From: Escherichia coli
Lineage (GTDB): Bacteria > Pseudomonadota > Gammaproteobacteria > Enterobacterales > Enterobacteriaceae
Assembly: GCF_009931435.1 (NCBI RefSeq)
Contig: NZ_CP043414.1
Reading direction: 5' to 3' (one strand)
DNA length: 64,000 bases
The translations under genes and the position numbers were made by a program. The notes beneath the pieces are model-generated. The model did not search any database and had not been told where the DNA came from. It worked only from the letters and a program-made list of their open reading frames with translations. Of this stretch, positions 14,095 through 58,459 are shown one piece after another (position 1 is the stretch's first letter; every line of letters begins with the position of its first letter).

Positions 14095-14679
14095 TTACTC
14101 CCTGACAGGGTTCGTAGGCCACTCAATATCAGGTGCAGTTGATGTATCAACACGGTTCAGCAACACCCGATATTTTTTCCAGGCTTCCAGCAATGAGGTT
14201 TCTTCCTCCGTTGCGATTTCCAGATCTACAGCATCCTGAAGTGGCGCAATATGCTCACTGGCTACCTGCATCAGGCTGTTTTTTGTTTCTTCCGCCTCCC
14301 GAATCCGGAACAGTTTTTCTGCTTCTGCATCTTTCACCCAGGCTGTACCGTTCCACTTCTGAAACTCCCCTTCCGGCGATAACCAGGTAACATTTTCCGG
14401 TAACGGACCGAGTTCAGAAATAAATAACGCGTCCCCTGACGCTACGTCATAAACCGTTTTACCCCGATGATCTTCAACGAGATGCCACGATGACTCATCA
14501 CTGTTGAAAACAGCCACGAAGCCAGCTGGAATATCTGGCGGTGCAATGTCGGTACTGTTTGCTGGCAGACCTGTATGAGGCGGAATATATGCGTCACCTT
14601 CACCAATAAATTCATTAGTTCCGGCCAGCAGATTATAAATTGTTATGGTCCGTGGTTGTTCACTCATTCTGAATGCCAT
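14095..14679 (-). CDS. tfa: Tail fibre assembly protein Tfa
   Basis: ORF track 194 aa; start overlaps the stf stop by 1 nt; lambda Tfa-like. Confidence 0.85.
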
Positions 14680-24632: not shown

Positions 24633-27208
24633 CGTCCACCTCCGGAGAACAGGCCACCATCACGCATCTGTGTCTGAATTTCATCACGGGCACCCTTGCG
24701 GGCCATGTCATACACTGCTTTCATCATCTGTGGACCTGGCAGACCATTCGTACCGTCGTTCTGAATCACCACGTTGTTGTTCTGCTCAAACCTGATACCC
24801 TCTGAACGCCGCATTTGCGCCGGACTTCCGGTGCCACCGACATAACCGCCGGTGGCATAGCCGCGCATCAGCCGGTAGAGATTTCCCACGCCAATCCGGC
24901 TGGTTGCCTCCTTCGTGAAGACAAATTCACCACGGTGAACAATCCCCGCTGGCTCATATTTGCCGCCGGTTCCCGTAAATCCTCCGGTTGCAAAATGGAA
25001 TTTCGCCGCAGCGGCCTGAATGGCTGTGCCGCCTGACGCGGATGCGCCGCCACCAACAGCCCCGCCAATGGCGCTGCCGATACTCCCGACAATCCCCACC
25101 ATTGCCTGCTTAAGCAGAATTTCTGTCATCATGGACAGCACGGAGCGGGTGAAGCTGCGCCAGTTCTGCTCACTGCCGGTCAGCATCGCCGCCATATTCT
25201 GTGCAATACCATCAAAGGTCTGCGTGGCTGCACTTTTTACCTGCGACATACTGTCCGTGGCGCTCTCTTCCCACTCACTCCAGCCGGACTTCAGGCCTGC
25301 CATCCAGCTCCCGCGAAGCTGGTCTTCAGCCGCCCAGGTCTTTTTCTGCTCTGACATGACGTTATTCAGCGCCAGCGGATTATCGCCATACTGTTCCTTC
25401 AGGCGCTGTTCCGTGGCTTCCCGTTCTGCCTGCCGGTCAGTCAGCCCCCGGCTTTTCGCATCAATGGCGGCCCGTTTTGCCCGTTGCTGCTGTGCGAATT
25501 TATCCGCCTGCTGCGCCAGCGCGTTCAGGCGCTCCTGATACGTAACCTTGTCGCCAAGTGCAGCCAGCTGGCGTTTGTACTCCATCGTCTCATCTTTATG
25601 CGCCAGCAGGGATTTCTCCTGTGCGGACAGCTGGCGACGTTGTGCCGCCTCCTCCAGTACCGCGAACTGACTTTCTGCCTTCCACAAATCCCGGCGCTGC
25701 TGGCTGATTTTCTCATTTGCTCCGGCATGCTTCTCCAGCGTCCGGAGTTCAGCCTGAAGCGTCAGCAGGGCAGCATGAGCACTGTCTTCCTGACGATCGC
25801 CCGCAGACACCTTCACGCCGGACTGTTTCGGCTTTTTCAGCGTCGCTTCATAATCCTTTTTCGCCGCCGCCATCAGCGTGTTGTAATCCGCCTGCAGGAT
25901 TTTCCCGTCTTTCAGTGCCTTATTCAGTTCTTCCTGACGGGCGGTATATTTCTCCAGCGGCGTCTGCAGGCGTTCGTAAGCCTTCTGCGCCTCTTCGGTA
26001 TATTTCAGCCGTGATGCCTCAGACTCGACCCAGTCCTTTGCTGCCATCTCTCTGGCCTTTTCAAGATCGGCCTGCAACGTGGCGGCTGAAAGCCCAAGTT
26101 GCGCATTCGCTCTGTCCTCCCATGCTCCCCGGAGATTGGCAAGAAATGCTGAGGTTTTACCGCGCCGGTGGCTCCGGCTCTGATACCACTGCCATTTTTT
26201 GTCCGCCTCATCAAAAGCCTTTTCTGCTTTCTCCAGCATTCCCTGGGCAGTGTCCGGGCGACCAATATCCAGCACCGAATCCCACATGGATTTGAATGCC
26301 CGTGCTGTCCTGTCTGCCCAGGTCTCCAGCGTGCCCATGTTCTCTTTCAGGCGGCGGGTCTGGTCATCAAACCCTTTCGTTGCGGCCTCGTTCGCCGCCT
26401 GCAATGCCCCGGCTTCATCGCCGGAACGCTGCAACTGAGCAACATACGCAATCTGCTCCGCCGTCACGTTATGGAACTGGCGTGCCATCGCCGTCAGCCC
26501 CGACGTCGGGTCTGTGGTCAGCTTCCCGAAGGCTTCAGCGACCTTGTCCACCTCCACGCCGGATGCAGAGGAGAAACGCGCCACACTCTGGCTGATGGAC
26601 GCAATCTGAGCCTCACCGCTTACCCCCGCCTTAACCAGTGCGCTGAGTGACTCGCTGGTCTGGTTAAACGTCAGCCCTGCCGCCTGCCCGGCTCTGGACA
26701 GGACCAGCATGCGATCTGCCGTCAGACCCGACTGATTGCCGGAAAGGACCAGCGTTTTGTTGAAATCGGACAGGGTTGAGTTGCCCTGATACCAGGCATA
26801 CGCCAGCGCACCGGTCGCCACCGCCAGCGAGGTGGCCCCGACCATCGGCAGGGTGATCGCACCGGCAAGCCCCCTGAACATGGGGATCATCCCGCCGAAG
26901 GAGTCCTTAACCTGACCACCCTGTTGCAGCAGGATCAGCCACGGACTTTGCCCGCCTGCAAACTGCGTGGCCACGTCGGTGAACTGTGCAGGCAGCATAC
27001 GCATGGCGGCTTTATACTGCCCGACGGAAATCCCCGCTTTCTGTGCAGCCAGCGCCTGTCGGCTCAGCGACTGTTCAACGACTGCCGCTGTTTTTTTCGC
27101 ATCAGTTTCCGTACCGGAAAAATGACGCCTGACTCTGGCCATCTGCTCGTCAAATCTGGCCGCATCCAGACTTAAATCAACGACCAGATCGCCTACCGGT
27201 TCAGCCAT
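24629..27208 (-). CDS. H: Tail tape measure protein H
   Basis: ORF track 859 aa; coiled-coil/Ala-rich; downstream of G-T. Confidence 0.9.
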   Translation of the reverse strand: MAEPVGDLVVDLSLDAARFDEQMARVRRHFSGTETDAKKTAAVVEQSLSRQALAAQKAGISVGQYKAAMRMLPAQFTDVATQFAGGQSPWLILLQQGGQVKDSFGGMIPMFRGLAGAITLPMVGATSLAVATGALAYAWYQGNSTLSDFNKTLVLSGNQSGLTADRMLVLSRAGQAAGLTFNQTSESLSALVKAGVSGEAQIASISQSVARFSSASGVEVDKVAEAFGKLTTDPTSGLTAMARQFHNVTAEQIAYVAQLQRSGDEAGALQAANEAATKGFDDQTRRLKENMGTLETWADRTARAFKSMWDSVLDIGRPDTAQGMLEKAEKAFDEADKKWQWYQSRSHRRGKTSAFLANLRGAWEDRANAQLGLSAATLQADLEKAREMAAKDWVESEASRLKYTEEAQKAYERLQTPLEKYTARQEELNKALKDGKILQADYNTLMAAAKKDYEATLKKPKQSGVKVSAGDRQEDSAHAALLTLQAELRTLEKHAGANEKISQQRRDLWKAESQFAVLEEAAQRRQLSAQEKSLLAHKDETMEYKRQLAALGDKVTYQERLNALAQQADKFAQQQRAKRAAIDAKSRGLTDRQAEREATEQRLKEQYGDNPLALNNVMSEQKKTWAAEDQLRGSWMAGLKSGWSEWEESATDSMSQVKSAATQTFDGIAQNMAAMLTGSEQNWRSFTRSVLSMMTEILLKQAMVGIVGSIGSAIGGAVGGGASASGGTAIQAAAAKFHFATGGFTGTGGKYEPAGIVHRGEFVFTKEATSRIGVGNLYRLMRGYATGGYVGGTGSPAQMRRSEGIRFEQNNNVVIQNDGTNGLPGPQMMKAVYDMARKGARDEIQTQMRDGGLFSGGGR

Positions 27209-37036: not shown

Positions 37037-37556
37037 TCAGCAACCCCGGTATCAGTTCATCCAGCGCGGCTGCTTTGTTCATGGCTTTGATGATATCCCG
37101 TTTCAGGAAATCAACATGTCGGTTTTCCAGTTCCGGAAAACGCCGCTGCACCGACAGGGGGATCCCGTCGAGAATACTGGCAATTTCACCTGCGATCCGC
37201 GACAGCACGAAAGTACAGAATGCGGTTTCCACCACTTCAGCGGAGTCTCTGGCATTTTTCAGCTCCTGTGCGTCGGCCTGCGCACGCGTAAGTCGATGGC
37301 GTTCGTACTCAATAGTCCCTGGCTGGAGATCTGTCTCGCTGGCCTGCCGCAGTTCTTCAACTTCCCGGCGCAGCTTTTCGTTCTCAATTTCAGCATCCCT
37401 TTCGGCATACCATTTTATGACGGCGGCAGAGTCATAAAGCACCTCATTACCCTTGCCACCGCCTCGCAGAACGGGCATTCCCTGTTCCTGCCAGTTCTGA
37501 ATGGTACGGATACTCGCACCGAAAATGTCAGCCAGCTGCTTTTTGTTGACTTCCAT
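37011..37556 (-). CDS. Nu1: Terminase small subunit Nu1
   Basis: ORF track 181 aa; N-terminal HTH; immediately next to cos. Confidence 0.9.
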
Positions 37557-37733
37557 TGCTCATTCCACGGACAAAAACAGAGAAAGGAAACGACAGAGGC
37601 CAAAAAGCTCGCTTTCAGCACCTGTCGTTTCCTTTCTTTTCAGGGGGTATTTTAAATAAATACATTAAGTTACGACGAAGAAGAACGGAAACACCTTAAA
37701 CCGGAAAATTTTCATAAATAGCGAAAACCCGCG

Positions 37734-37746
37734 AGGTCGCCGCCCC
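37734..37746 (-). other. cos cohesive-end site (cosN; cosB lies between it and Nu1)
   Basis: Reverse complement of 37560..37760 matches the lambda left-end sequence GGGCGGCGACCTCGCGGGTTTTCGCTATTTATGAAAATTTTCCGG... by recall; about 190 bp from the Nu1 start. Confidence 0.75.
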
Positions 37747-37944
37747 GTAACCTGTCGGATCGCCGGAAAGGACCCACAAAATGATAATAATTATCATCTA
37801 CATGTCACAACGTGCATCTACGCCATCAAACCACGTCAAATAATCAATTATGACGCAGGTATCGTATTAATTGATCTGCATCAACTTAACGTAAAAACAA
37901 CTTCAGACAATACAAATCAGCGACACTGAATACGGGGCAACCTC

Positions 37945-38139
37945 ATGTCAACGAAGAACAGAACCCGCAGAACAACAACCCGCAACATCCGCTTTCCTAA
38001 CCAAATGATTGAACAAATTAACATCGCTCTTGAGCAAAAAGGGTCCGGGAATTTCTCAGCCTGGGTCATTGAAGCCTGCCGTCGGAGGCTAACGTCAGAA
38101 AAGAGAGCATATACATCAATTAAAAGTGATGAAGAATGA
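37945..38139 (+). CDS. ylcI: Small hypothetical protein (YlcI-like)
   Basis: ORF track 64 aa; position between cos and bor as in lambda/DLP12. Confidence 0.55.
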   Translation: MSTKNRTRRTTTRNIRFPNQMIEQINIALEQKGSGNFSAWVIEACRRRLTSEKRAYTSIKSDEE

Positions 38140-38303
38140 ACATCCCGCGTTCTTCCCTCCGAACAGGACGATATTGTAAATTCACTTAATTACGAGGGCA
38201 TTGCAGTAATTGAGTTGCAGTTTTACCACTTTCCTGACAGTGACAGACTGCGTGTTGGCTCTGTCACAGGTTAAGTAGTTTGAATGATTAGCAGTTATGG
38301 TGA

Positions 38304-38510
38304 TCAGTCAACCACCAGGGAATAATCCTTCATATTATTATCGTGCTTCACCAACGCTGCCTCAATTGCCCTGAATGCTTCCAGAGACACCTTATGTTCT
38401 ATACATGCAATTACAACATCAGGGTAACTCATAGAAATGATGCTATTAAGCATATTTTTTACACGAATCAGATCCACGGAGGGATCATCAGCAGATTGTT
38501 CTTTATTCAT
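38304..38510 (-). CDS. ybcW: Small hypothetical protein (YbcW-like)
   Basis: ORF track 68 aa; conserved position near cos. Confidence 0.55.
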
Positions 38511-38672
38511 TTTGTCGCTCCATGCGCTTGCTCTTCATCTAGCGGTTAAAATATTACTTCAAATCTTTCTGTATGAAGGTTTGAGCACGTTGGCCTTACA
38601 TACATCTGTCGGTTGTATTTCCCTCCAGAATGCCAGCAGGACCGCACTTTGTTACGCAACCAATACTATTAA

Positions 38673-39206
38673 TTGAAAACATTCCTAATATTTGACATAA
38701 ATCATCAACAAAACACAAAGAGGTCAGACCAGATTGAAGCGATAAAAACGATAATGCAAACTACGCGCCCTCGTATCACATGGAAGGTTTTACCAATGGC
38801 TCAGGTTGCCATTTTTAAAGAAATATTCGATCAAGTGCGAAAAGATTTAAACTGTGAATTGTTTTATTCTGAACTAAAACGTCACAATGTCTCACATTAT
38901 ATTTACTATCTAGCCACAGATAATATTCACATTGTGTTAGAAAACGATAACACCGTGTTAATAAAAGGACTTAAAAAGGTTGTAAATGTTAAATTCTCAA
39001 GAAATACGCATCTTATAGAAACGTCCTATGATAGGTTGAAATCAAGAGAAATCACATTTCAGCAATACAGGGAAAATCTTGCTAAAGCAGGAGTTTTCCG
39101 ATGGATTACAAATATCCACGAACATAAAAGATATTACTATACCTTTGATAATTCATTACTATTTACTGAGAGCATTCAGAACACTACACAAATCTTTCCA
39201 CGCTAA
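38673..39206 (+). CDS. ybcV: Hypothetical protein (YbcV-like)
   Basis: ORF track 177 aa; AT-rich; conserved position next to bor. Confidence 0.55.
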
Positions 39207-39496
39207 ATCATAACGTCCGGTTTCTTCCGTGTCAGCACCGGGGTGTTGGCATAATACAATACATGTACGCGCTAAACCCTGTGTGCATCGTTTTTAATTA
39301 TTCCCGGACACTCCCGCAGAGAAGTTCCCCGTCAGGGCTGTGGACATAGTTAATCCGGGAATACAATGACGATTCATCGCACCTGGCATACATTAATAAA
39401 TATTAACAATATGAAATTTCAACTCATTGTTTAGGGTTTGTTTAATTTTCTACACATACGATTCTGCGAACTTCAAAAAGCATCGGGAATAACACC

Positions 39497-39790
39497 ATGA
39501 AAAAAATGCTACTCGCTACTGCGCTGGCCCTGCTTATTACAGGATGTGCTCAACAGACATTTACTGTTCAAAACAAACAGACAGCAGTAGCACCAAAGGA
39601 AACCATCACCCATCATTTCTTCGTTTCTGGAATTGGGCAGAAGAAAACTGTCGATGCAGCTAAAATTTGTGGCGGCGCAGAAAATGTTGTTAAAACAGAA
39701 ACCCAGCAAACATTCGTAAATGGATTGCTCGGTTTTATTACTTTAGGCATTTATACTCCGCTGGAAGCGCGTGTGTATTGCTCAAAATAA
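39497..39790 (+). CDS. bor: Bor lipoprotein (serum resistance)
   Basis: ORF track 97 aa; lipobox LITGC; recognised Bor sequence. Confidence 0.9.
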   Translation: MKKMLLATALALLITGCAQQTFTVQNKQTAVAPKETITHHFFVSGIGQKKTVDAAKICGGAENVVKTETQQTFVNGLLGFITLGIYTPLEARVYCSK

Positions 39791-39821
39791 TTGCATGAGT
39801 TGCCCATCGATATGGTCAGCT

Positions 39822-40283
39822 CTATCTGCACTGCTCATTAATATACTTCTGGGTTCCTTCCAGTTGTTTTTGCATAGTGATCAGCCTCTCTCTGAGGGTG
39901 AAATAATCCCGTTCAGCGGTGTCTGCCAGTCGGGGGGAGGCTGCATTATCCACGCCGGAGGCCGTGGTGGCTTCACGCACTGACTGACAGACTGCTTTGA
40001 TGTGCAACCGACGACGACCAGCGGCAACATCATCACGCAGAGCATCATTTTCAGCTTTCGCATCAGCTAACTCCTTCGTGTATTTTGCATCGAGCGCAGC
40101 AACATCACGCTGACGCATCTGCATGTCAGTAATTGCCGCGTTCGCTAGCTTCAGTTCTCTGGCATTTTTGTCGCGCTGGACTTTGTAGGCGATTGCGTTA
40201 TCACGGTAATGATTGACCGCCCATGACAGGCTGACGATGATGCAGATAATCAGAGCGGATATAATCGCGGTTACTCTGCTCAC
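39822..40283 (-). CDS. Rz: Spanin inner membrane subunit Rz
   Basis: ORF track 39822..40295; 153-aa product if started at the GTG overlapping the R stop (GTGA); N-terminal TM plus coiled coil. Confidence 0.85.
39881..40063 (-). CDS. Rz1: Spanin outer membrane lipoprotein Rz1, embedded in Rz in another frame
   Basis: ORF track 60 aa; lipobox VVGC; proline-rich; nested inside Rz. Confidence 0.85.
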
Positions 40284-40777
40284 TGTTGCCCCCACAAACA
40301 GACTTCACGCTCAATCTCACGACGAGTCATCAGGCCTTTCCATTGCTTACCGCCAGCGTATGTCCAGCGACGCAGCTGATCACATGCGCCTTTGATATCG
40401 CCCTGGTTTATTTTGCGAAGAAGCGTCGATGTTCTAAAATTGCCAGCACCCACGTTGTAAACGAATGAGTAAAGAGCGCCGCGCGTTGTTTCCGGTATAT
40501 CGACTTTGATATACGGGTTAATTTGTCTGGCGACAGTGGCAAGGTCTTTATTCAAGAGTGCTTTGCATTCTGCTTTGGTATACGTTTTACCGAGCATGAT
40601 GTCTTTTCCGGTGTGTCCGTGACATACAGTCCATACACCAACAATATCTTTGTATGGTATGTAGCTGACACCTTCCAGACCATCGTTACCACTTGGGCCA
40701 GTGATTAACACTGATGCTATAGCAATTGCTCCGCCACCAATAGCAGCAGCAACGGCTTTTCGTAATGATGGAGGCAT
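40280..40777 (-). CDS. R: SAR endolysin (lysozyme with N-terminal signal-arrest-release segment, phage 21 R-like)
   Basis: ORF track 165 aa; hydrophobic Gly/Ala-rich N-terminus followed by lysozyme-type domain. Confidence 0.88.
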
Positions 40778-40992
40778 TATTCACCTCTCGCAGCCTTGCG
40801 CTTATCTTCTTTAATCTTGAAATAAAGGTTTGTCAGGTACGTCAGCAGGCCAAATACCAGGCTACCCAGCACACCTATTGCTGCCCACTGTGAGGGAGTG
40901 ACTTTATCTAGCAGCTGTAAAAACCAGTACCCGGCACTACCTGCTGAGGTGCCATAGGCGACACCCGTTGTTAACTTATCCATGGATTTCAT
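40777..40992 (-). CDS. S: Pinholin (phage 21 S-like) with dual-start motif MKSM
   Basis: ORF track 71 aa; two TM segments; Met1 and Met4 starts. Confidence 0.88.
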
Positions 40993-41108
40993 AACCCCAC
41001 CTCGCAGACAAAGCGGGTGTAAATTGAGGGAATACTACGAAACGTAACAGACTCGGAGTCAGTGAATAACTCAGGTATTGGGTTATCAGCTAATATCGAG
41101 ACTCAAAA

Positions 41109-41140
41109 AATGGAAAAACCCGCTCGACGGCGGGTTTAAG
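41109..41140 (-). terminator. Intrinsic terminator-like hairpin on the late-gene strand, about 115 bp upstream of S
   Basis: Reverse strand reads cccgccgtcgagcggg followed by a T-run. Confidence 0.5.
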
Positions 41141-41564
41141 CTGTGTGACGAAGTAACCACTCTTAACAGCATAACCAATTTTTTACGTACGTAAACCACT
41201 AAATGATATTTGAGAGAATGCTACCGAGTATTGAAAACACCACTACAAATACATAAGCAAATCTCAACAAATAACCAAAAAATAATTTCCAGTGTTATTT
41301 TTAGCCGGTTTAAATTGAACCTTCAAATTATAGAACACTTATAAATAACAGCCGTTAATATAAATTGGCTAATAGATTTATTTTTATTCAGCCAAGAGCC
41401 ATGAATAGGATTCGATAGAAAAAAGTTCAGATAAAAATAGAGATCTACTTCACAAATCAAACGAGAAACCAAAACTTACATCTTGAAATAATCACATTGA
41501 TTAGATGAATATTTATCGCGCAGTGACATCATTTTTTAATAATAGTTCAAAAAAAGGGCTCACG

Positions 41565-42662
41565 ATGAAAAAATTAACAGTGGCAATTTCTGCTGTAGCT
41601 GCATCAGTACTGATGGCGATGTCTGCTCAGGCAGCTGAAATTTATAATAAAGACAGTAACAAGCTGGATCTGTACGGGAAAGTTAATGCTAAGCACTACT
41701 TCTCCTCTAATGATGCAGATGATGGTGATACTACTTATGCCCGTCTTGGCTTCAAAGGTGAAACCCAAATCAACGATCAACTGACTGGTTTCGGTCAGTG
41801 GGAATATGAATTCAAAGGCAACCGCGCTGAATCTCAAGGTTCCTCCAAAGATAAAACCCGTCTTGCCTTCGCTGGCCTGAAATTCGGTGACTACGGCTCC
41901 ATCGATTACGGCCGTAACTACGGTGTAGCATACGACATCGGTGCGTGGACTGACGTCCTGCCAGAATTCGGTGGTGACACTTGGACTCAAACCGACGTGT
42001 TCATGACTCAACGTGCAACTGGTGTTGCAACCTATCGTAACAACGACTTCTTTGGTCTGGTTGATGGTCTGAACTTTGCTGCTCAGTACCAAGGCAAAAA
42101 CGATCGTAGCGATTTCGATAACTACACTGAAGGTAACGGTGATGGCTTCGGTTTCTCTGCTACCTATGAATACGAAGGATTCGGTATCGGTGCAACTTAT
42201 GCGAAATCTGATCGTACCGACACTCAAGTTAATGCAGGGAAAGTTCTTCCTGAAGTATTTGCTTCCGGTAAAAATGCAGAAGTTTGGGCCGCAGGTCTGA
42301 AATATGACGCTAACAACATTTACCTGGCCACTACCTATTCTGAAACCCAGAATATGACTGTATTTGCTGATCACTTCGTTGCTAATAAAGCCCAAAACTT
42401 CGAAGCTGTTGCACAATATCAGTTCGATTTCGGTCTGCGTCCGTCCGTTGCTTACCTGCAATCTAAAGGTAAGGATCTTGGAGTATGGGGCGATCAGGAC
42501 TTAGTCAAATATGTTGATGTAGGTGCAACCTATTACTTCAACAAAAATATGTCTACTTTCGTTGATTACAAAATCAACCTGCTTGACAAAAATGACTTCA
42601 CTAAAGCACTCGGTGTAAGCACTGATGACATCGTTGCTGTAGGTCTGGTTTACCAGTTCTAA
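41565..42662 (+). CDS. nmpC: Outer membrane porin NmpC (OmpC/OmpD family), intact
   Basis: ORF track 41505..42662; start at MKKLTVAIS with signal peptide; C-terminal Phe; no IS interruption. Confidence 0.9.
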
Positions 42663-42851
42663 TCTGATTACGAAAAAGATATGTTGCGGGAGGCGTTGCC
42701 TCCCCAACATATAAGTGGCTCCCTCAAGCCACTTCCTTTAGAAGCACAACCTTGCTTCTAACTATATAAACCTTCTGTTATATATTACCCTTTATTTTTG
42801 GGGGCGTCTCAACGCCCCATTTTTAATAATTTTTAGTAAACAATTGGCATA

Positions 42852-43235
42852 TTAATTAGAGTTATTAACAACGATATCCATCTCTAACCGGATATCTAAT
42901 GCCATTAACATCCCTTCAATTATGCCCTCAGCCTTCTGTAACCTTTTCCCGATATAACCATCAGAGCAGCAATGCTTACCTGCCAGTGACATGAATGTCA
43001 TACCGACTACATAATAATCTACTAATAAATCGTGCAAATCGCTGTTGTTCTTTTTCAGACGGGCCATGCACCCGCAAATGATCATCGCGTCATCGTCACA
43101 ACATTGCGGGCGAGATTTTACTTTTGAAGTAATTAATCCCTTAAAACCGGCGGCAATGGACGACCAGGTCACATCTTCATGATTATTAGCCGCCCACGCT
43201 CCCCAACGCTCAAGAACCATCTGAATATCACGCAT
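42852..43235 (-). CDS. quuD: Late gene antiterminator Q (QuuD-like)
   Basis: ORF track 42852..43250; internal Met gives 127 aa; Cys-rich zinc-binding region. Confidence 0.82.
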
Positions 43236-43457
43236 CAACTTACTCCACAAAAATCAGACCAGAACGCCAATTACAAGCAAAAATCAACAAAACAGTATTA
43301 GTTGATTGTTATCTCTGACTTCATACTCCTGCTCCTGTCAGGGTTTTGGCGTAATTCTTCAGTATTCGGTAATCGGTCAAAACAGAACCGGGGAAACGAT
43401 ATAAGCGCAGACGCCCCCAGCGGTGGCGAAGAAGTTCTGCCATATTAAACTCAAACA

Positions 43458-43820
43458 TCATTCATTCCCCATTTCGGTGATGGTCAGTTCCAGCCTCCCA
43501 CCTTTGGTAACAGGCATCTTCACAACGCGGTAATCAACGACCTGAGCATCATCCAGCCAGAAACCTGCTTTAGTGAGTGCGTCAAAAGCGGCTTTTTGCA
43601 GATTATCCAGGTCACGGCGACGGCGATCCGGCATGTGGCACTCAATGCGGATTTTCACAGGCATAGCCAGGCCGATATCCAGCATTGCGTTTTTAATGAT
43701 TCGGGCGACGTTATCGCGGTATGCCTGCCCCTCTGCGCTGACGTGCGTGCGCCCGCGATTATGGCGGTAATAGCGATTATTGCTCGGAGGCCAGGGTAAT
43801 GTGATGCTGTAGGTATTCAC
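43458..43820 (-). CDS. rusA: Holliday junction resolvase RusA
   Basis: ORF track 120 aa; recognised RusA sequence. Confidence 0.9.
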
Positions 43821-44939: not shown

Positions 44940-45737
44940 TTACTCTCTGGAAGCTTTTCTTATCTCTCTTGGTGTTATATTAAAACGATTATGAAATCTT
45001 TCAGTAAAACGAGAAGGACACTTATAACCATTTTCTCTGGCAATCTCGCTTATAGGTTTTACCGTCGTTTGTATAGCAGACAACGCATTATTTAACCTCA
45101 CATCGTCCAGTATACTTTGGAAACTTACCCCCTCGCTTGCTAGACGGCGATGTAATGTAGAAACAGAAATGTAGAGATATCGAGCAACCTTGTTTGCTGT
45201 CCATTTTGTGCCGGGTTCGGATAGCAGCAGGTTATAACAACGACTTATCAATGATTGTTTACTATATGATAAAAGTAAATGATTAACATGATTCACTCCT
45301 AACGAAAGTAGAACGCCCATTGCTAAGTGCTCCTGAATTTTAGTTGAGAAGCCTCGGGAAACAGATGTTTTTAGTTGCTCCCAACAATATATTAACTCAG
45401 GATTCTGAGGTAAAAAGAAACTTGTTTTGTTACGTATTTGATCAGTTACCGTATAAAGTTTTTGGAAACTCTCAATTAAATCAATGGGTAAGTAAAGCAT
45501 TTCTGCAAGATAAAGCCCTGCTTCAGGATAATTCTCAATATAAAATTCATAACCACAAGGAAATAATATTATTTGATTATTATCAACAGTTAAAGTATGC
45601 GTCTCCCAATTGATAACTTTCTTTCCCTGACGGATACGACACAAAGCTGGCATAAGAGGCTTAACCCTATGAATCTCATGATGTTTATGCATCCGTATTT
45701 CTTCGATCTTTAAGTTAGTCTTACCTCTTGCCAGCAT
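44940..45737 (-). CDS. ybcM: AraC-family transcriptional regulator YbcM
   Basis: ORF track 265 aa; C-terminal AraC HTH; low GC. Confidence 0.78.
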
Positions 45738-45746
45738 ACTCTCACC

Positions 45747-46298
45747 CTACTTTATCTCATAAACTGGTGTTATCTCAGCGGTTGCGATTTTATTAGCATT
45801 AAGCATATAACCAACTAACGCTCCGCTGGAGTTAGAATCTACAGGAATCTTTTCAGTTTTTAGAGCCCATACTTTAAACTGGTAATGATGTGGTTTATCT
45901 CCTTTAGGAGGACATGCGCCACCAAACCCAGCATAGCCAAAATCATTTCGGCCTTGAACAGCACCAGTCGGCAGTTTTGTTCCATCACGTCTCCCTGCAT
46001 CAACGGGCAAATATGTTACTGTTGCTGGAATATTAACAACAGTCCAATGCCACCAACCACTGCCTGTAGGTGCATCTGGATCATATACAGTTACGGCAAA
46101 GCTTTTGGTACCTTCAGGAACACCAGACCAGGTTAATGAGGGCGATGTATTACCACCTTCACACCCAAATCCAGAAAAGACATGAGACGTTGTAAGTTGC
46201 TCTCCTGTTTTTATTTCATTACTAGTGACCTGAAATGCTGCAGCCTGCGCAGAAAATGTTATGAATGCCAATACAGTTGAAACGATAAGTGTTTTCAT
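45747..46298 (-). CDS. ybcL: Periplasmic PEBP-family protein YbcL
   Basis: ORF track 183 aa; signal peptide; recognised YbcL sequence. Confidence 0.82.
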   Translation of the reverse strand: MKTLIVSTVLAFITFSAQAAAFQVTSNEIKTGEQLTTSHVFSGFGCEGGNTSPSLTWSGVPEGTKSFAVTVYDPDAPTGSGWWHWTVVNIPATVTYLPVDAGRRDGTKLPTGAVQGRNDFGYAGFGGACPPKGDKPHHYQFKVWALKTEKIPVDSNSSGALVGYMLNANKIATAEITPVYEIK

Positions 46299-46762
46299 AA
46301 AAACCTCTTTGTTATGACCTATCGTTATTTTATTTGATATTCCTTTATCTCATTATGCATAAAGGCGCAATGTTCATGCAAAAGCAATCACAATTGTACC
46401 CCCAACCCAATTATTTGCCACAATATACACAAAGCACATTGATACTATCTAAAAACTCTGCTTTATTATTAGTAACACCTACGAAAGTCGGTGTTATTTT
46501 TTAACCTACCATTCAAAATACGTGACATACACCATTTTGCTCATAATAATTTGTCACGTATTTTCAGTATTTGAATCTGCGACCAAGAGTTCTCACCTAA
46601 CAAATGATTAAGATTGTATAGCTCATTTACTACCCCAATACAGCCGTACAAAACTCGCTTGTGGGAGCAAACAAAGTAATTACCCATTAAGTTTCGTCAA
46701 AGATAATTAATTCTGTCTTGCACTTTATCACCATAGCATAACTTAAAATCCGAGATCATTAT

Positions 46763-48289
46763 TTAGAAATAAATCTCACCATCAACCATATATTTGAGAG
46801 CACTTATCGCCTGCTGGGCGGATATTACTTTCATTAAAGGATAGTGTTTAAAAACAATGCCATTCATAAAATAGATATCACAGGTTTTATTATCCGTATT
46901 AATTATGATTTTTTCGAATGTTTTATAGGCAAGTGTACGGCATAACTCTCGTCCATTTTTACTGGTTAAGTCAATAGCATAAAAATCACTGAATGAATTT
47001 ACACCTTTACTCTTCAAAGTTTTCAATGATACCGAAGCCCTTCGTAATTCCTTATCTAATAGTCTTATTTTCTCTGCTATAGCGGTAACTTCAGGCGCGA
47101 CAGACAATGCAACGATTAAATTATTAATTTTCATCTGAAGCTCAATAATTTTTAACTCTAAAGTTTCATTAGCATCTTTCTTGTTTTCAACTGGTTGAAT
47201 TTTGCTACAATTAAAAAGCAATTCATTAATGATATTATAATCAACCAAATCTCTTTTTATTGATGGCCTGTCACATCGATGTAATCTTCTCATCGGACAA
47301 ACATAATAGCCATGCAAACTTCCAGATACCGCATGAACAATCATGGTATTACCACAAGCCTCACACTTCATAACTGTTCGAAGTAGATTTATTAGCATAG
47401 GATTCTTGCTACTATTGCTAATACCAAAAGGTGCCAACCGAATTTCCTGTACAGCGTAAAACAAATCATCTGATATGACTCTGGGATAATAGCCAGCGAT
47501 TTCACTTATCCCTTTCCCTCTTGCACGATATGAAGGTACGCAAATACCTATCAGAGCTTTATTCGCTAATAATTTTTCAATTACAGAAGGTCCCCATGCA
47601 CTTTCTTTTCCTGAGAAATTCTTTACAGCATGATCATTTAAATACTTGGCTATTGCATTCAATGAGCGCCTTTCCATCCTGAGTTTAAAAATTAGCTCAA
47701 TAGTTTTCACCCTGTCTGGGTCTGGAACAAAAGCCGTTCTTTTGTCATCTAAGGAGAGCCATCTCGGATAAGACGCCGTCATAATCGTACCTGATTCCAG
47801 TGCATCCTGCCGTTTTTTCTTCCATGATAATTTAACCCGACTTGACTTTATCTCGCTTTCTTCATTTGCCCTTTGTGCTATAAGTATGGCTTTTATTAAT
47901 GAATATGGCTCATTCAAAGAGTCAATATTATAGACTGTATTGTCGCAAAGAGTTATAACATCAATACCGTGATTCAAAATCAATTTCAGACGTTCAATCG
48001 CTTCACCGACTTTTTCTCTTGAAAGTCTGTCCAGACTTTCAACTAACAATGTAGTTCCTGGCAATATATAACCATGCTCTATAGCATCTAAAAATTCCGA
48101 AAAAGCTCCTGATTGTGCATGCTTTCCTTTGAATGCACTTAATCCTAAATCTTCATATGTTATGGTATCAAGATAATAATCACTATTTACCTTTAACCAT
48201 TCAGCAATAAGTCTTCTCTGTCGGTTTAATGAGTCGCCAGACATCTGACCTGGTGATGAAAATCGCATATATGCTATGGCTTTTTTCAT
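46763..48289 (-). CDS. ybcK: Large serine recombinase (YbcK-like)
   Basis: ORF track 508 aa; N-terminal resolvase catalytic motif (YMRFSS), Cys-rich zinc ribbon, C-terminal coiled coil. Confidence 0.82.
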   Translation of the reverse strand: MKKAIAYMRFSSPGQMSGDSLNRQRRLIAEWLKVNSDYYLDTITYEDLGLSAFKGKHAQSGAFSEFLDAIEHGYILPGTTLLVESLDRLSREKVGEAIERLKLILNHGIDVITLCDNTVYNIDSLNEPYSLIKAILIAQRANEESEIKSSRVKLSWKKKRQDALESGTIMTASYPRWLSLDDKRTAFVPDPDRVKTIELIFKLRMERRSLNAIAKYLNDHAVKNFSGKESAWGPSVIEKLLANKALIGICVPSYRARGKGISEIAGYYPRVISDDLFYAVQEIRLAPFGISNSSKNPMLINLLRTVMKCEACGNTMIVHAVSGSLHGYYVCPMRRLHRCDRPSIKRDLVDYNIINELLFNCSKIQPVENKKDANETLELKIIELQMKINNLIVALSVAPEVTAIAEKIRLLDKELRRASVSLKTLKSKGVNSFSDFYAIDLTSKNGRELCRTLAYKTFEKIIINTDNKTCDIYFMNGIVFKHYPLMKVISAQQAISALKYMVDGEIYF

Positions 48290-48543
48290 GGTGACACCTG
48301 CTAACGTATGCTTTTATAAACCTTAGTGGTGGGATATAATTTTTGTTTATTTTTTATTTAAAAAGACAATTAAGGTCACATTATCTTGAATATACAACAA
48401 TAATCGTATTGCAATTTTCTTACGCCATAATCTTGAAAGCACAAAAGAATACATAAAAAATAAAGACATTAACAAAAAGCATAAAACGAGGCTCATATAA
48501 ATATAAGAGCCTCCATATTTTAGTCGTTTAGAAACAAATTATT

Positions 48544-48876
48544 TTAATGTGGTGTGCTTCGTGACAATAAATTAATAATCAACACACCGGCACAAATCAA
48601 CATCATGCCTATAATGGCTGGCAGGTCCAGCCGTTGGCCGAAAAATCCCCATGACAGTAAGCTAATCAGGACAATACCGACTCCTGACCAGATAGCATAA
48701 GCAATCCCTGTAGGAATATAAGCCAGCGTCTGAGCTAATAACCAGAATGATGCACAATAACAAATAATTGTACCAACAGATGGCCATAACCGTGTAAAAC
48801 CTTCTGAAAACTTCATTAAGGTTGTACCAATGACCTCTGCAAGTATTGCACCACCAAGATAAATATAAGGGTTCAT
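48544..48876 (-). CDS. emrE: SMR-family multidrug efflux transporter EmrE
   Basis: ORF track 48544..48930; start at MNPYIYLGG gives 110 aa; four TM segments. Confidence 0.9.
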   Translation of the reverse strand: MNPYIYLGGAILAEVIGTTLMKFSEGFTRLWPSVGTIICYCASFWLLAQTLAYIPTGIAYAIWSGVGIVLISLLSWGFFGQRLDLPAIIGMMLICAGVLIINLLSRSTPH

Positions 48877-48943
48877 AGCATATTCTTTCCTGTTCAAACT
48901 GGAGAGAATTGTACTACAGTTTGAACTCAACTCACCTGTTTCA

Positions 48944-49246
48944 TCATTGTGTTCCCATTGATGTTCTTTTATATACCCTCAATACCCGTTTCATCGCGGC
49001 ACTCTGGCGACACTCCTTAAAAATCAGATTCGTGCTCACCTTTCCTTCCCATTCTTCTCTGGTAGCGAACCGGTAATACACCGTTCGCCAGACCTTACCA
49101 TCAACGACCAGGATTCCTGCCCGCGCCATTTTAGCCGCAGCCTGATTTATGCTGGTTACGGTTGCGCCTGTTACCGCGGCAACGTCCTGTGCACAGAAGC
49201 TCTTATGCGTCCCCAGGTAATGAATAATTGCCTCTTTGCCCGTCAT
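48944..49246 (-). CDS. ren: Ren-like protein
   Basis: ORF track 100 aa; immediately downstream of P as in lambda. Confidence 0.7.
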   Translation of the reverse strand: MTGKEAIIHYLGTHKSFCAQDVAAVTGATVTSINQAAAKMARAGILVVDGKVWRTVYYRFATREEWEGKVSTNLIFKECRQSAAMKRVLRVYKRTSMGTQ

Positions 49247-49944
49247 ACACTTGCTCCTTTCAGTCCGAACTTAGCTTTAATTTCTGCGATCTTCGCCAGA
49301 GCCTGTGCACGATTTAGAGGTCTACCGCCCATAACAGGAAGTTGTTTTACTGGTTCAGGTATCGTCTCACCACGGTTAATTCGCGCTGTCATACAGGTCA
49401 GTTCATCGGCAGCCTTGCGCCGTAATTCCGCGTCAGCCAGCGCATTGGCCCGCATGTTCTGGTACAAGTTGGTAACCAACCAGTAATGCGCGTTCGATTT
49501 CCACGGATAAGACTCTGCATCCGGATACAGGCCACGCTTCCGGCAATACTCGTAAACCATATCAACCAGCTCGCTGACGTTTGGCAGCCCGGCGTTAACA
49601 GATGCTTCTTCCCGGCACCAGGCGACAAACTGCCCGGGTGATGGCAGGAATGGTCGATTCTGCCGACGGGCTACGCGCATTCCAGCGTTAACCTGTTCCA
49701 TTGTGGTGATCCCGTTTTCCCGGAAAGCCAGAACCCACTGGCGGCGGATTTCGTTCAGTTCATTCTGGTCACGGTTAGCCAGGCTAGCCGGGAAAGTTGC
49801 CAGTAACTGGCTGAACACACCGTTGATGATCTGCGCTACCTGCTGTACCTGCGGCTTTTCGTCGTACTGTTCCGGCATATTGTTGGCGATCCGGCGCATC
49901 TGCTCACGGTCAAAGTTAACCATCTGTGCGGCGATGTTTTTCAT
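49243..49944 (-). CDS. P: Replication protein P (DnaB helicase loader)
   Basis: ORF track 233 aa, lambda gpP length. Confidence 0.9.
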   Translation of the reverse strand: MKNIAAQMVNFDREQMRRIANNMPEQYDEKPQVQQVAQIINGVFSQLLATFPASLANRDQNELNEIRRQWVLAFRENGITTMEQVNAGMRVARRQNRPFLPSPGQFVAWCREEASVNAGLPNVSELVDMVYEYCRKRGLYPDAESYPWKSNAHYWLVTNLYQNMRANALADAELRRKAADELTCMTARINRGETIPEPVKQLPVMGGRPLNRAQALAKIAEIKAKFGLKGASV

Positions 49945-50960
49945 AAATCCACCCCGTAAATCCAGTCAGTGTTCGTCAGGTCGAGTTTTGGTTTGCCGGC
50001 TGTCACGCCAGCCTGTTGCTTGTTTCGGTTGATTTCGAGCTGGGTCCACTTGTCGCGGAGTTTGGCCGGACTCAGCACGTTACCGGACCAGAAGTTGTCC
50101 TGGCATGCCCAGCGGAACAGCACGCACATGTCGCGGTGGTTACGTCCGTCACGTTCACGCATCAGGCGGATATCGTTAGCCCACCCTGCAAAATTCGGTT
50201 TTCTGGCTGATGGCGCGATGGTCTTCACCATGTCAAACATCCACTCTGCGGCGGTCAGGTCTTCTGCTGTCCCCCACTTGCTGCCACTCTGAATTGCAGC
50301 ATCCGGTTTCACCACAGGAAGGTCGTTTTCTGGCTGGTCAGAGGATTCGCCAGAATTCTCGGACGAAAAAGGTTTTATATTGTCTTTTGTTAGTTTGTCT
50401 TTTGTGTTTACCTGATTCGGGTAAACGCCTTTACCTGATTTGGGTAAACTTTTCTTACCTGATTCAGGTAAATTTACCTCTTTCAGGTAAACTTTATTTT
50501 TCTTACCTGATTCGGGTAATGTTGACCATTCACTGACCACATTATTAATGCCGATATTTCGCCCGCTCTGAATAAGAATCCCACGCTTTACCAGAACGCT
50601 TTTTGCAGCAGAACACTTGTGCGGCAATATCCCGGTCAATTCGGAAAGTTGCTCGTTGCTCACCCAATCCAGTCTTTTATTAAAGCCATATGTTTTGCGC
50701 ATGACAGCCAGGAAGACCAGAAGCTGGTGCTGTGTTAATCCGGCCAGCATCACAGCTTCCAGCAACTCATTTGCAATGCGCGTATAACCATCATCGAGAT
50801 CTGCCACGCGCGGCTCCTTTTGTGCCGCATCCGGCACTGGAAAATTGAATATCTCAGCAGTGTTTGCCATAATTCCTCCCGCAATGAGTGTGTTACGATT
50901 TGCACCTGAAAGTCGGTTCTGTTCCCGCAGACCGACTTTCGCCATTTCTGAACCTATCAT
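49941..50960 (-). CDS. O: Replication initiator O (lambda-like C-terminal half; non-lambda N-terminal half and iterons)
   Basis: ORF track 339 aa; contains ori iterons and AT-rich segment; start overlaps upstream stop (ATGA). Confidence 0.85.
   Translation of the reverse strand: MIGSEMAKVGLREQNRLSGANRNTLIAGGIMANTAEIFNFPVPDAAQKEPRVADLDDGYTRIANELLEAVMLAGLTQHQLLVFLAVMRKTYGFNKRLDWVSNEQLSELTGILPHKCSAAKSVLVKRGILIQSGRNIGINNVVSEWSTLPESGKKNKVYLKEVNLPESGKKSLPKSGKGVYPNQVNTKDKLTKDNIKPFSSENSGESSDQPENDLPVVKPDAAIQSGSKWGTAEDLTAAEWMFDMVKTIAPSARKPNFAGWANDIRLMRERDGRNHRDMCVLFRWACQDNFWSGNVLSPAKLRDKWTQLEINRNKQQAGVTAGKPKLDLTNTDWIYGVDL
50405..50525. repeat. Phage replication origin: about five iterons of the form TACCTGATTCGGGTAAAC inside the O gene
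   Basis: Direct repeats each with internal dyad TACC..GGTA, read on the + strand; adjacent AT-rich stretch. Confidence 0.7.
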
Positions 50961-53476: not shown

Positions 53477-53887
53477 TTGAATTTCAGCAGGCTTCGGGGA
53501 GTGCGAGGGGTGAAACGGACGCGTGAACGTCGGTGTGACCAGCTGAAATCAACACAACACTTTATACCTCAGTCGCTTCAACGAGGCGGCTTAGTTATGA
53601 CAACCGGCGGCCATCCACCGCCTGAATACGCGCAGAAGTCTCTATATGTTCAGCAGCCCAGCTTACGGGCAGGAGTTTTTATGGTTCATCAACATTACGG
53701 AACGCAGACCGTTAATCGAGGTGCGGTCATGCCAGGAATGCTGGTCAAACACAAAGATGGTACCTGGACTGCATCAGCTAATTTACGCGGACGGCTTTAT
53801 CTGCATCGCGGCATCGAGCGCACTTATACCCGTGATTTGCTCGTGGAAGTTTTTCTCGACGGACGCGGTAACGGCCTGAATCGCTAA
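53477..53887 (+). CDS. Hypothetical protein at the early-left position (possible start at 53597)
   Basis: ORF track 136 aa from a non-ATG start; first ATG (MTTGG...) has a weak RBS; in frame with and 75 bp upstream of gam. Confidence 0.4.
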
Positions 53888-53962
53888 TCCCCTTTCCTGT
53901 TTTCCTAATCAGCCTGGCATTTCGCGGGCGATATTTTCACAGCCATTTTCAGGAGTTCAGCC

Positions 53963-54259
53963 ATGAACGCTTATTACATTCAGGATCGTCTTGAGGCTCA
54001 GAGCTGGGCGCGTTACTACCAGCAGATCGCCCGTGAAGAGAAAGAGGCAGAACTGGCAGACGACATGGAAAAAGGCCTGCCCCAGCACCTGTTTGAATCG
54101 CTATGCATCGATCATTTGCAACGCCACGGGGCCAGCAAAAAAGCCATTACCCGTGCGTTTGATGACGATGTTGAGTTTCAGGAGCGCATGGCAGAACACA
54201 TCCGGTACATGGTTGAAACCATTGCTCACCACCAGGTTGATATTGATTCAGAGGTATAA
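53963..54259 (+). CDS. gam: RecBCD inhibitor Gam (short form)
   Basis: ORF track 98 aa; recognised lambda Gam C-terminus ...[10 protein letters not shown]. Confidence 0.9.
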
Positions 54260-54264
54260 AACGG

Positions 54265-55050
54265 ATGAGTACAGCACTCGCAACGCTGGCAGGGAAGCTG
54301 GCTGAACGTGTCGGCATGGATTCTGTCGACCCACAGGAACTGATCACCACTCTTCGCCAGACGGCATTTAAAGGTGATGCCAGCGATGCGCAGTTCATCG
54401 CATTGCTGATCGTCGCCAACCAGTACGGCCTTAATCCGTGGACGAAAGAAATTTACGCCTTCCCTGATAAGCAGAACGGCATCGTTCCGGTGGTGGGCGT
54501 TGATGGCTGGTCCCGCATCATCAATGAAAACCAGCAGTTTGATGGCATGGACTTTGAGCAGGACAACGAATCCTGTACATGCCGGATTTACCGCAAGGAC
54601 CGTAATCATCCGATCTGCGTTACCGAATGGATGGATGAATGCCGCCGCGAACCATTCAAAACCCGCGAAGGCAGAGAAATCACGGGGCCGTGGCAGTCGC
54701 ATCCCAAACGGATGTTACGGCATAAAGCCATGATTCAGTGTGCCCGTCTGGCCTTCGGATTTGCTGGTATCTATGACAAGGATGAAGCCGAGCGCATTGT
54801 CGAAAATACTGCATACACTGCAGAACGTCAGCCAGAACGCGACATCACTCCGGTTAACGATGAAACCATGCAGGAGATTAACACTCTGCTGATCGCCCTG
54901 GATAAAACATGGGATGACGACTTATTGCCGCTCTGTTCCCAGATATTTCGCCGCGACATTCGCGCATCGTCAGAACTGACACAGGCCGAAGCAGTGAAAG
55001 CTCTTGGATTCCTGAAACAGAAAGCCACTGAGCAGAAGGTGGCAGCATGA
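54265..55050 (+). CDS. bet: Single-strand annealing recombinase Bet
   Basis: ORF track 261 aa; lambda Bet-like. Confidence 0.95.
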
Positions 55051-55727
55051 TACCGGACATTATCCTGCAGCGTACCGGGATCGACGTGAGAGCTGTCGAA
55101 CAGGGGGATGATGCATGGCACAAATTACGGCTCGGCGTCATCACCGCTTCAGAAGTTCACAACGTGATAGCAAAGCCCCGCTCAGGAAAGAAGTGGCCTG
55201 ACATGAAAATGTCCTACTTCCACACCCTGCTGGCTGAGGTTTGCACCGGTGTGGCTCCGGAAGTTAATGCTAAGGCGCTGGCCTGGGGAAAACAGTACGA
55301 GAACGACGCCAGAACCCTGTTTGAATTCACTTCCGGCGTGAATATTACTGAATCCCCGATCATCTATCGCGACGAAAGTATGCGCACCGCCTGCTCTCCC
55401 GATGGTTTATGCAGTGACGGCAACGGCCTTGAACTGAAATGCCCGTTTACCTCCCGGGATTTCATGAAATTCCGGCTCGGTGGTTTCGAGGCAATAAAAT
55501 CGGCTTACATGGCCCAGGTGCAGTACAGCATGTGGGTGACGCGAAAAGATGCCTGGTACTTTGCCAACTATGACCCGCGCATGAAGCGTGAAGGCCTGCA
55601 TTATGTCGTGATTGAGCGGAATGAAAAGTACATGGCGAGTTTTGACGAGATGGTGCCGGAGTTCATCGAAAAAATGGACGAGGCACTGGCTGAAATTGGT
55701 TTTGTATTTGGGGAGCAATGGCGATGA
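55047..55727 (+). CDS. exo: 5'-3' exonuclease Exo
   Basis: ORF track 226 aa; lambda Exo-like. Confidence 0.95.
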
Positions 55728-55906
55728 CGCATCCTCACGATAATATCCGGGTAGGCGCGATCACTTTCGTCTACTCCGTTACAAAGCGAGGCTGGGTATT
55801 TCCCGGCCTTTCTGTTATCAGAAATCCACTGAAAGCACAGCGGCTGGCTGAGAAGATAAATAATAAACGGGAGGCGGTATGCACAAAGCATCTCCTGTTG
55901 AGTTAA
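55718..55906 (+). CDS. Small hypothetical protein (lambda orf60a-like)
   Basis: ORF track 62 aa; overlaps exo stop. Confidence 0.5.
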
Positions 55907-56070
55907 GAACGAGTATTGAGATGGCACATAGCCTTGCTCAAATTGGAGTCAGGTTTGTGCCAATACCAGTAGAAACAGACGAAGAATTTCATACGTTAGC
56001 CACATCCCTTTCACAAAAGCTGGAAATGATGGTGGCGAAAGCAGAAGCAGATGAGAGAGACCAGGTATGA
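55879..56070 (+). CDS. Small hypothetical protein (lambda orf63-like)
   Basis: ORF track 63 aa. Confidence 0.5.
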   Translation: MHKASPVELRTSIEMAHSLAQIGVRFVPIPVETDEEFHTLATSLSQKLEMMVAKAEADERDQV

Positions 56071-56146
56071 CAACCACTGAATGCATTTTTCTGGCAGCGG
56101 GCTTCATATTCTGTGTGCTTATGCTTGCCGACATGGGGCTTGTTCA

Positions 56147-56362
56147 ATGACACCTCAGCAAGAAAACGCCCTTCGCAGCATTGCCCGTCAGGCTAATTCT
56201 GAAATCAAAAAAGCCAGACAGCATTTTCCGGATAAAAACGTCGATGACATTTGCCGTAGCGTACTAAAGAAGCACCGCGAAACGGTAACGCTGATGGGAT
56301 TCACACCGACTCATTTAAGCCTGGCGATCGGCATGTTGAACGGCGTCTTTAAGGAACGGTGA
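56147..56362 (+). CDS. Small hypothetical protein (lambda orf61-like)
   Basis: ORF track 56081..56362; internal Met (MTPQQEN...) chosen. Confidence 0.5.
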   Translation: MTPQQENALRSIARQANSEIKKARQHFPDKNVDDICRSVLKKHRETVTLMGFTPTHLSLAIGMLNGVFKER

Positions 56363-56460
56363 ACATGAAAAGCAAAATCATCAGGGAGCTACAGGCTCCT
56401 TTTTTATTATTCGCATTTACCCTCAAGCGTATTAACCAACAATTCAGGGATTAATGAAAG

Positions 56461-56679
56461 ATGGCAGACATCATTGATTCAGCATCAGAAATCGAAGAAT
56501 TACAGCGCAATACAGCAATAAAAATGCGTCGTCTGAACTACCAGACTGTATCCGCAACTCATTGTTGTGAGTGTGGCGATCCGATAGATGAGCGAAGACG
56601 CCTGGCTGTTCAGGGTTGTCGGACTTGTGCGAGTTGCCAGGAGGAGATCGAACTTAAGAACAAACAATGGGGACTGTGA
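56461..56679 (+). CDS. DksA/TraR-family C4 zinc-finger protein (lambda Orf73-like)
   Basis: ORF track 72 aa; CxxC...CxxC motif. Confidence 0.7.
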   Translation: MADIIDSASEIEELQRNTAIKMRRLNYQTVSATHCCECGDPIDERRRLAVQGCRTCASCQEEIELKNKQWGL

Positions 56680-58382: not shown

Positions 58383-58459
58383 TGGCGCGCCCTGCAGGAT
58401 TCGAACCTGCGGCCCACGACTTAGAAGGTCGTTGCTCTATCCAACTGAGCTAAGGGCGC
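58383..58459 (-). tRNA. argU: tRNA-Arg (anticodon UCU, argU)
   Basis: 77-nt sequence with CCA end matching argU by recall; its 3' 45 nt is the prophage attachment repeat. Confidence 0.88.

Follow-up and report, generated by a model that had tools for sequence, protein, structure and literature searches.

Gene content and identity of the locus

The segment lies at positions 39822–40992 of the window, by which we mean the whole 64,000-nucleotide stretch of Escherichia coli DNA that was analysed. It holds four tightly packed genes on the minus strand, S, R, Rz and Rz1, which were recognised from the list of open reading frames and from Pfam (Table 1). The four proteins match all four of their Pfam families far above the curated cut-offs. 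The neighbouring bor gene is a member of the lambda-like block that is described below, and lies outside the lysis cassette.

Over all 1171 bp the segment has 100% nucleotide identity to essD-rrrD-rzpD of E. coli K-12 MG1655, and likewise to many other laboratory strains. The identity to phage 434B (OL657227) is also 100% across the 1171 bp. Because a match of this length and quality is to known genes, chance resemblance is not an issue. The cassette is already known in full: E. coli K-12 has the identical sequence, and a crystal structure of the endolysin exists. The segment is almost certainly the lysis cassette essD-rrrD-rzpD/rzoD of a DLP12-type lambdoid prophage integrated at argU, working by the phage 21 pathway of pinholin, SAR endolysin and spanins. 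We found no sequence feature that contradicts this reading; the points to be counted against it are the GTG start codon of Rz, which is ATG in lambda, phage 21 and phage 434, and a proline to arginine change (P34R) in the penta-proline motif of Rz1. The cassette is among the best-characterised lysis systems, and its importance beyond correct annotation is slight.

Searches outside Pfam added little. In a scan of the four proteins against NCBIfam no family was returned for S, Rz or Rz1, and R gave matches below threshold only. An Rfam search of the whole window at the gathering threshold gave nothing in or near the cassette, and when the cut-off was relaxed to E≤1 over 37500–43500 the only matches near the cassette were two chance microRNA hits far below threshold.

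Table 1. Coordinates of the lysis genes and associated features in the window, with the evidence for each assignment
Feature	Coordinates	Strand	Evidence
S (essD), long product S71	40777..40992	-	Open reading frame; PF04971; identity to K-12 essD and to the phage 434B 'antiholin'
S68, pinholin form from Met4 in the S frame	40777..40983	-	Met4 codon; identical phage 434B CDS 'holin class II'
R (rrrD), SAR endolysin, GH24 lysozyme	40280..40777	-	PF00959; identity to PDB 4ZPU
Rz (rzpD), i-spanin	39822..40283	-	PF03245; similarity to lambda Rz; rzpD / i-spanin annotation
Rz1 (rzoD), o-spanin lipoprotein	39881..40063	-	PF06085; lipobox; phage 434B o-spanin annotation
Lambda homology breakpoint, S/R to the right and lambda-like DNA to the left	40282..40283		BLAST; identity profile in 40-bp bins
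quuD, Q-type late antiterminator	42852..43235	-	Open reading frame; quuD in colinear genome; 'antiterminator' in phage 434B
bor, convergent, directly downstream of the cassette	39497..39790	+	PF06291 (E=1e-30); annotated bor

S, a class II pinholin

The S product has 71 amino acids, begins MKSMDK (Met1, Lys2, Met4) and matches the Pfam family PF04971, 'Bacteriophage P21 holin S', with E=2e-35 and 121 bits against a cut-off of 26. The first-pass annotation had called S a pinholin on the basis of an MKSM dual start and two transmembrane segments, and both features are present. The motif Met1-Lys2-Ser3-Met4 supplies two in-frame Met codons, and phage 434B and phage 21 records annotate both of the corresponding coding sequences (S21-68 in phage 21). 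The first transmembrane domain, TMD1 (residues 8–28), is rich in Gly, Ala and Ser and weakly hydrophobic, with a mean Kyte-Doolittle value of 0.55, and TMD2 (residues 35–57) is strongly hydrophobic, with a mean of 1.23. Residues G40, S44 and G48 are all found in TMD2 of S. In S21 the pattern G40xxxS44xxxG48 is the hole-lining face of TMD2, and TMD1 is weakly hydrophobic and releasable.

Compared with S of phage 21 the amino acid identity is 86% and the nucleotide identity 76.9%, with 10 substitutions in the protein from the cassette. The codon changes between the two genes comprise 33 synonymous and 10 non-synonymous, and this predominance of synonymous differences indicates purifying selection.

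The pinholin S21, the SAR endolysin R21 and the dual-start motif have been described (PMC6116005); in phage 21 the shorter of the two products is the hole-former and the longer the inhibitor (phage 21 annotation; PMC6116005). The channels formed by S21 are up to 2 nm, so that a folded endolysin does not fit through them, but they suffice to collapse the membrane potential (PMC6116005). By homology to S21, S would thus form small, about 2 nm, depolarising holes that a cytoplasmic endolysin could not pass. Our statements on phage 21 are based on its GenBank annotation and on open-access reviews (PMC6139136, PMC6116005).

RNA folding of the translation-initiation region of S (40950–41040, minus strand) predicts a local hairpin in which CCCGCUUUG is paired with the Shine-Dalgarno stretch CGAGGUGGG. 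The fold of this region is as stable as that of shuffled sequence (z=0.13), and we therefore claim no regulatory structure.

R, a SAR endolysin

The start codon of R shares one base with the stop codon of S (TAATG). The 165-amino acid product matches PF00959 with E=1e-45 and is identical to PDB entry 4ZPU, 'Lysozyme RrrD', across all 165 amino acids, differing by two substitutions from R21 (3HDE). A Gly/Ala-rich, hydrophobic N-terminus of the SAR type had been noted earlier, and residues 8–26 do form such a stretch, with Gly and Ala making up 53% of it. The Glu-Asp-Thr triad is found as E35, D44 and T50. In the RrrD and R21 structures the SAR domain is the N-terminal helix, and Glu35 is named as a catalytic residue of R21 (PMC6024848).

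Endolysins of the R21 type are exported by Sec, and while the membrane is energised the uncleaved SAR domain keeps them within it in an inactive state; collapse of the membrane potential then leads to their release and refolding (PMC6116005). By analogy with R21, R is likely to be exported by Sec, tethered in an inactive form and freed on depolarisation.

Rz and Rz1, the spanin genes

The sequence across the R/Rz junction reads ...CAACAGTGAGCAGAG. As had been reported, Rz begins at a GTG (40283-40281) that overlaps the R stop codon TGA (40282-40280) as GTGA, so that the two frames read CAG-TGA and GTG-AGC. Lambda has a four-base start/stop overlap at the same place, which reads ATGA. The GTG at 40283 corresponds to the position of the ATG in both lambda and phage 21, it has a Shine-Dalgarno sequence, GGGGG, 5 nt upstream, and it is the start annotated in the RefSeq and phage 434B records. 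A longer reading frame of 157 amino acids beginning at a GTG at 40295 was considered and rejected, as it has no counterpart in lambda or phage 21, no Shine-Dalgarno sequence, and the annotated start is 40283.

The Rz product contains 153 amino acids and matches PF03245 with E=1e-53. It has an N-terminal transmembrane domain at residues 4–24, with a mean Kyte-Doolittle value of 2.27. Rz1 is nested entirely within Rz in the +1 frame, as the first-pass annotation had proposed and as is also the architecture in lambda, with its start offset by 220 nt from that of Rz. It encodes 60 amino acids that match PF06085 with E=4e-20, including a lipobox, VVGC, with Cys20 and a mature part with nine prolines. 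The cysteines Rz Cys99, Rz Cys152 and Rz1 Cys29 are all present; these are the intermolecular disulfide positions given in PMC6139136. For lambda and phage 21 alike, Rz and Rz1 are treated as the spanin genes, and spanins are required in both phages (PMC6139136).

The nucleotide identity of Rz to lambda Rz is 97.0%. At the protein level the differences are V12I, C18S, T32A and A35V, in addition to the GTG in place of ATG. V12I and C18S fall within the membrane anchor; in lambda Rz the anchor can be replaced by an artificial one (PMC5295617). Twelve of the 14 nucleotide differences lie within the first 140 bp of Rz, and the part of the gene that is doubly coding is nearly invariant relative to lambda.

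Rz1 is 98.9% identical to its lambda counterpart at the nucleotide level and carries two amino acid changes, L2R and P34R. The second changes the penta-proline stretch (residues 32–36) to PPRPP, in which P32, P33, P35 and P36 are kept and P34 is replaced by Arg. It results from a change at base 39963 (codon 34 at 39962–39964, minus strand) that is silent in the Rz frame. Lambda, phage 21 and phage 434 lack the substitution, and K-12 DLP12 and the viable phage 434B have it. In lambda Rz1, position 34 alone of the five prolines tolerates replacement, Ala being the only residue tried (PMC5295617).

The nested rzoD gene is a practical point for annotation. The RefSeq (PGAP) records of the matching E. 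coli genomes, one K-12 MG1655 assembly among them, do not annotate it, while Rz1 is annotated in the records of phage 21, 434 and lambda.

The R/Rz junction and the origin of the cassette

The first-pass annotation described the cassette as a chimera with the junction between modules exactly at the R/Rz boundary, and comparison with lambda places the breakpoint where it was predicted. BLAST similarity to lambda begins at window position 40282, corresponding to lambda 45967 and to the second base of Rz. At exactly this position the identity to lambda in 40-bp bins rises from 30–55% to 82–100%, and the interval 37746–40282 aligns with lambda 48502–45967 at 98.0% by BLAST. Rightward of 40282 a BLAST search against the whole lambda genome gave no similarity until the replication genes. 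S and R are without detectable similarity to lambda S and R, and forced global alignment gives 45–51% nucleotide and 21–25% amino acid identity. The proteins of lambda are also of a different kind: S is a canonical holin of 107/105 amino acids and R a cytoplasmic transglycosylase of 158 amino acids. The lambda pathway needs large holes for the release of R, while the pinholin/SAR pathway needs only depolarisation (PMC6116005).

A breakpoint of this kind could be taken as the mark of a distinctive and possibly recent chimera in the lineage of this genome, in which a phage 21 S/R module has recombined onto lambda Rz/Rz1; S and R unlike those of lambda, next to about 21 kb of lambda homology at 96–98% from base 2 of Rz onward, would fit such an event. 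We consider it very improbable, because the same breakpoint is shared by phage 21 and phage 434, which depart from lambda at the same point and have Rz/Rz1 that are 94–99% lambda-like. Phage 21 itself is 94.6% identical to lambda at the nucleotide level from the first base of its Rz through bor. The window is colinear with phage 21 over all four genes, at 92.7% and with no break at R/Rz, and the mismatch density is unchanged across the boundary, at 4.0% in R and 3.5% in Rz. The phage 21 genes S21-R21-Rz21-Rz1-21 (OL657228) are the same four genes with the same lengths, the same overlaps and the same MKSM dual start as in the window, and the amino acid identities are 98.8% for R, 94.2% for Rz and 98.4% for Rz1; the start codon of Rz is ATG in phage 21 and GTG in the window.

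The four genes are also colinear with the window in phage 434, phage 434B and K-12 DLP12, the cassette being identical in the last two. Within the phage collection the Rz module occurs in 454 records and the S/R module in 151, while 51 records cover 80% or more of the whole cassette. The same coverage is reached in 3585 of the 5426 complete E. coli genomes. As the same arrangement is present in phage 21, in 434, in 51 phage records and in 3585 genomes, the pairing of a pinholin/SAR module with lambda-type Rz/Rz1 is standard.

Of the chimera proposal, the functional labels and the breakpoint against lambda therefore stand, while a joining specific to this locus does not, given that phage 21, 434, 434B and DLP12 carry the same four genes. 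A homology search placing all four in one known phage lineage with no junction had been named as the result that would overturn the proposal, and the phage 21/DLP12 lineage is such a case. In terms of sequence, comparison with phage 21, phage 434 and DLP12 already refutes a locus-specific chimera. In the suggested alignments to phage 21 and lambda, S/R are of the phage 21 type and Rz/Rz1 are lambda-like; Rz/Rz1 of phage 21 are lambda-like too. The mixed ancestry of the cassette, with S/R unrelated to lambda and Rz/Rz1 97–99% lambda-like, is the canonical phage 21 arrangement, and the R/Rz junction is an old module boundary that is common to many lambdoid phages, not a new event. The locus is a textbook case of lambdoid mosaicism, with a breakpoint that can be placed to the base at a start codon.

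A further discontinuity is seen in the comparison with phage 21. Mismatches amount to 23% in S but only 4% in R, and the shift is abrupt: the last dense mismatch is at 40798, close to where S meets R. This is a second mosaic joint within the cassette, again between genes.

Proposed lysis pathway and expression

The pathway set out here is drawn from the 86–100% identity of the cassette products to characterised proteins. QuuD, an antiterminator of the Q type, would make the late transcripts resistant to terminators, so that they read into S. S would then be translated from two starts, giving the pinholin S68 from Met4 and S71 from Met1, and the additional Lys-bearing N-terminus of S71 would turn it into an antiholin, by which triggering is delayed. 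The pinholin would open holes of about 2 nm at a set time and depolarise the inner membrane. R would by then have been exported by Sec, with its Gly/Ala-rich SAR helix keeping it inactive in the membrane; on depolarisation it would be released, refold and cut the peptidoglycan. Rz, anchored in the inner membrane, and Rz1, a lipoprotein of the outer membrane, would together bridge the periplasm before disrupting the outer membrane, probably via fusion of both membranes. The Rz-Rz1 complex is known to span the periplasm and to be needed for disruption of the outer membrane in both the lambda and the phage 21 pathways (PMC6139136).

The quuD gene lies upstream of S on the same strand and is presumed to be the activator of late transcription into S. 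The Q-type antiterminator QuuD has been reported to control the DLP12 lysis operon (PMC7918800). A simple promoter scan of 39400–43400 gave five sites, compared with 8.4 in shuffled sequence, and none of the five is placed to serve S. The strand of S carries a terminator-like hairpin at 41116–41137 (-), about 125 nt upstream of its start codon, consisting of AAACCCGCCGTCGAGCGGGTTT and then TTCCATTTTT; late transcripts would have to read through this putative terminator. The gene nmpC, at 41565–42662 (+), separates the Q gene from S and runs against the direction of the late genes; it is an intact porin gene of the NmpC/Lc type that encodes 365 amino acids and matches PF00267 with E=5e-157.

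Function of the exact cassette sequence is supported indirectly, as it serves a viable phage, 434B, and causes lysis from a plasmid in K-12. Phage 434B, a clear-plaque mutant of 434, has exchanged about 5.5 kb for the syntenic segment of K-12 DLP12, a stretch that takes in Q, the late promoter and the lysis genes (PMC9119081); its cassette is annotated as antiholin, holin class II, SAR endolysin, i-spanin and o-spanin. The DLP12 operon carried on a plasmid gives a lytic phenotype in K-12 (PMC7918800). This bears on the possibility that the cassette is an inert remnant, with reading frames intact by chance that are unexpressed or non-functional, to which the GTG start of Rz, the hairpin upstream of S and the interposed, oppositely oriented nmpC might all be thought to point. 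Such a remnant is hardly credible when none of the four frames is broken and all of them match exactly a cassette that causes lysis (PMC7918800) and serves a viable phage (PMC9119081), and when the codon changes between S and S21 indicate purifying selection.

The surrounding prophage

The prophage adjoins the tRNA-Arg(tct) gene argU at 58383–58459, and the window is colinear at 96–99% with a stretch of the E. coli O169:H41 chromosome. The order of that stretch is cusC...appY, a full-length lambdoid prophage, argU, fimZ and the sfm genes. From the colinear annotation the prophage carries the DLP12 gene set, namely intD, emrE, ybcK-ybcO, rusA, quuD, nmpC, essD, rrrD, rzpD, bor, ybcV, ybcW and nohD, and it also has complete lambda-like terminase, head, tail and tail-fibre genes.

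The K-12 prophage DLP12 shares the integration site beside argU, and its essD-rrrD(ybcS)-rzpD/rzoD genes have the same neighbours as in the window (nmpC, quuD, bor, ybcV, ybcW and nohD). In K-12, however, DLP12 is truncated and an IS5 element splits nmpC, while in the window nmpC is intact and there is a full lambda-like set of head and tail genes. Phage 434B is a free phage and carries the IS5-split nmpC of K-12. Phage 21 has two tRNA genes upstream of S where the window has nmpC, and diverges from the window after bor. The downstream bor, cos and virion genes of lambda are 96–98% identical to those of the window.

The completeness of the prophage is relevant to whether the cassette could be mainly a domesticated host module that is governed by host regulators and serves to maintain peptidoglycan, control vesicles or bring about lysis in biofilms. 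K-12 has a defective DLP12 in which the identical operon is conserved and transcribed; when the operon is deleted, more outer-membrane vesicles are produced, and a response to RpoE and Hha has been reported (PMC7918800; PMC2408971). We nevertheless regard this as unlikely to be its main role here, since the prophage is of full length, with integrase, recombination, replication, Q, lysis, terminase, head, tail and tail-fibre genes, and since the same cassette serves the viable phage 434B (PMC9119081). With a full-length prophage in the window, lysis for its own progeny is the simplest role for the cassette. A role for the host is compatible with one for the phage but is less economical, because the prophage in the window looks complete.

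More tentatively, the window may hold a complete and possibly inducible prophage that resembles the ancestor of DLP12, with nmpC intact, a full set of lambda-like virion genes and the K-12 cassette; the GTG start of Rz, the P34R change and the divergent S could then tune lysis timing or spanin dose. This is a speculative possibility, which we think somewhat doubtful.

The lambda-like block extends over about 21 kb, from 19258 to 40282, and is near-continuous at 96–98% identity, with one gap of about 200 bp at 26021–26222. It contains Rz, Rz1, bor, cos, terminase, the head genes and the tail genes up to J, with cos at window 37746/37745, corresponding to lambda 48502/1. Further lambda-like islands are found at 48971–50407 (O/P) and 53881–56656 (gam-bet-exo), and the Q, nin, immunity and integrase regions of the prophage are not lambda-like. 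A full-length match to the Rfam family IS009 (RF02111) lies close to appY at 14138–14336 (-), in the tail-fibre-assembly end of the prophage, with a score of 228 bits where the gathering score is 117. The prophage also carries cargo genes, as in DLP12, comprising emrE (multidrug efflux), ybcK (recombinase), ybcL and ybcM; they lie between the replication genes and the nin-type genes, at about 45700–48900 (-) as estimated from the colinear annotated genome.
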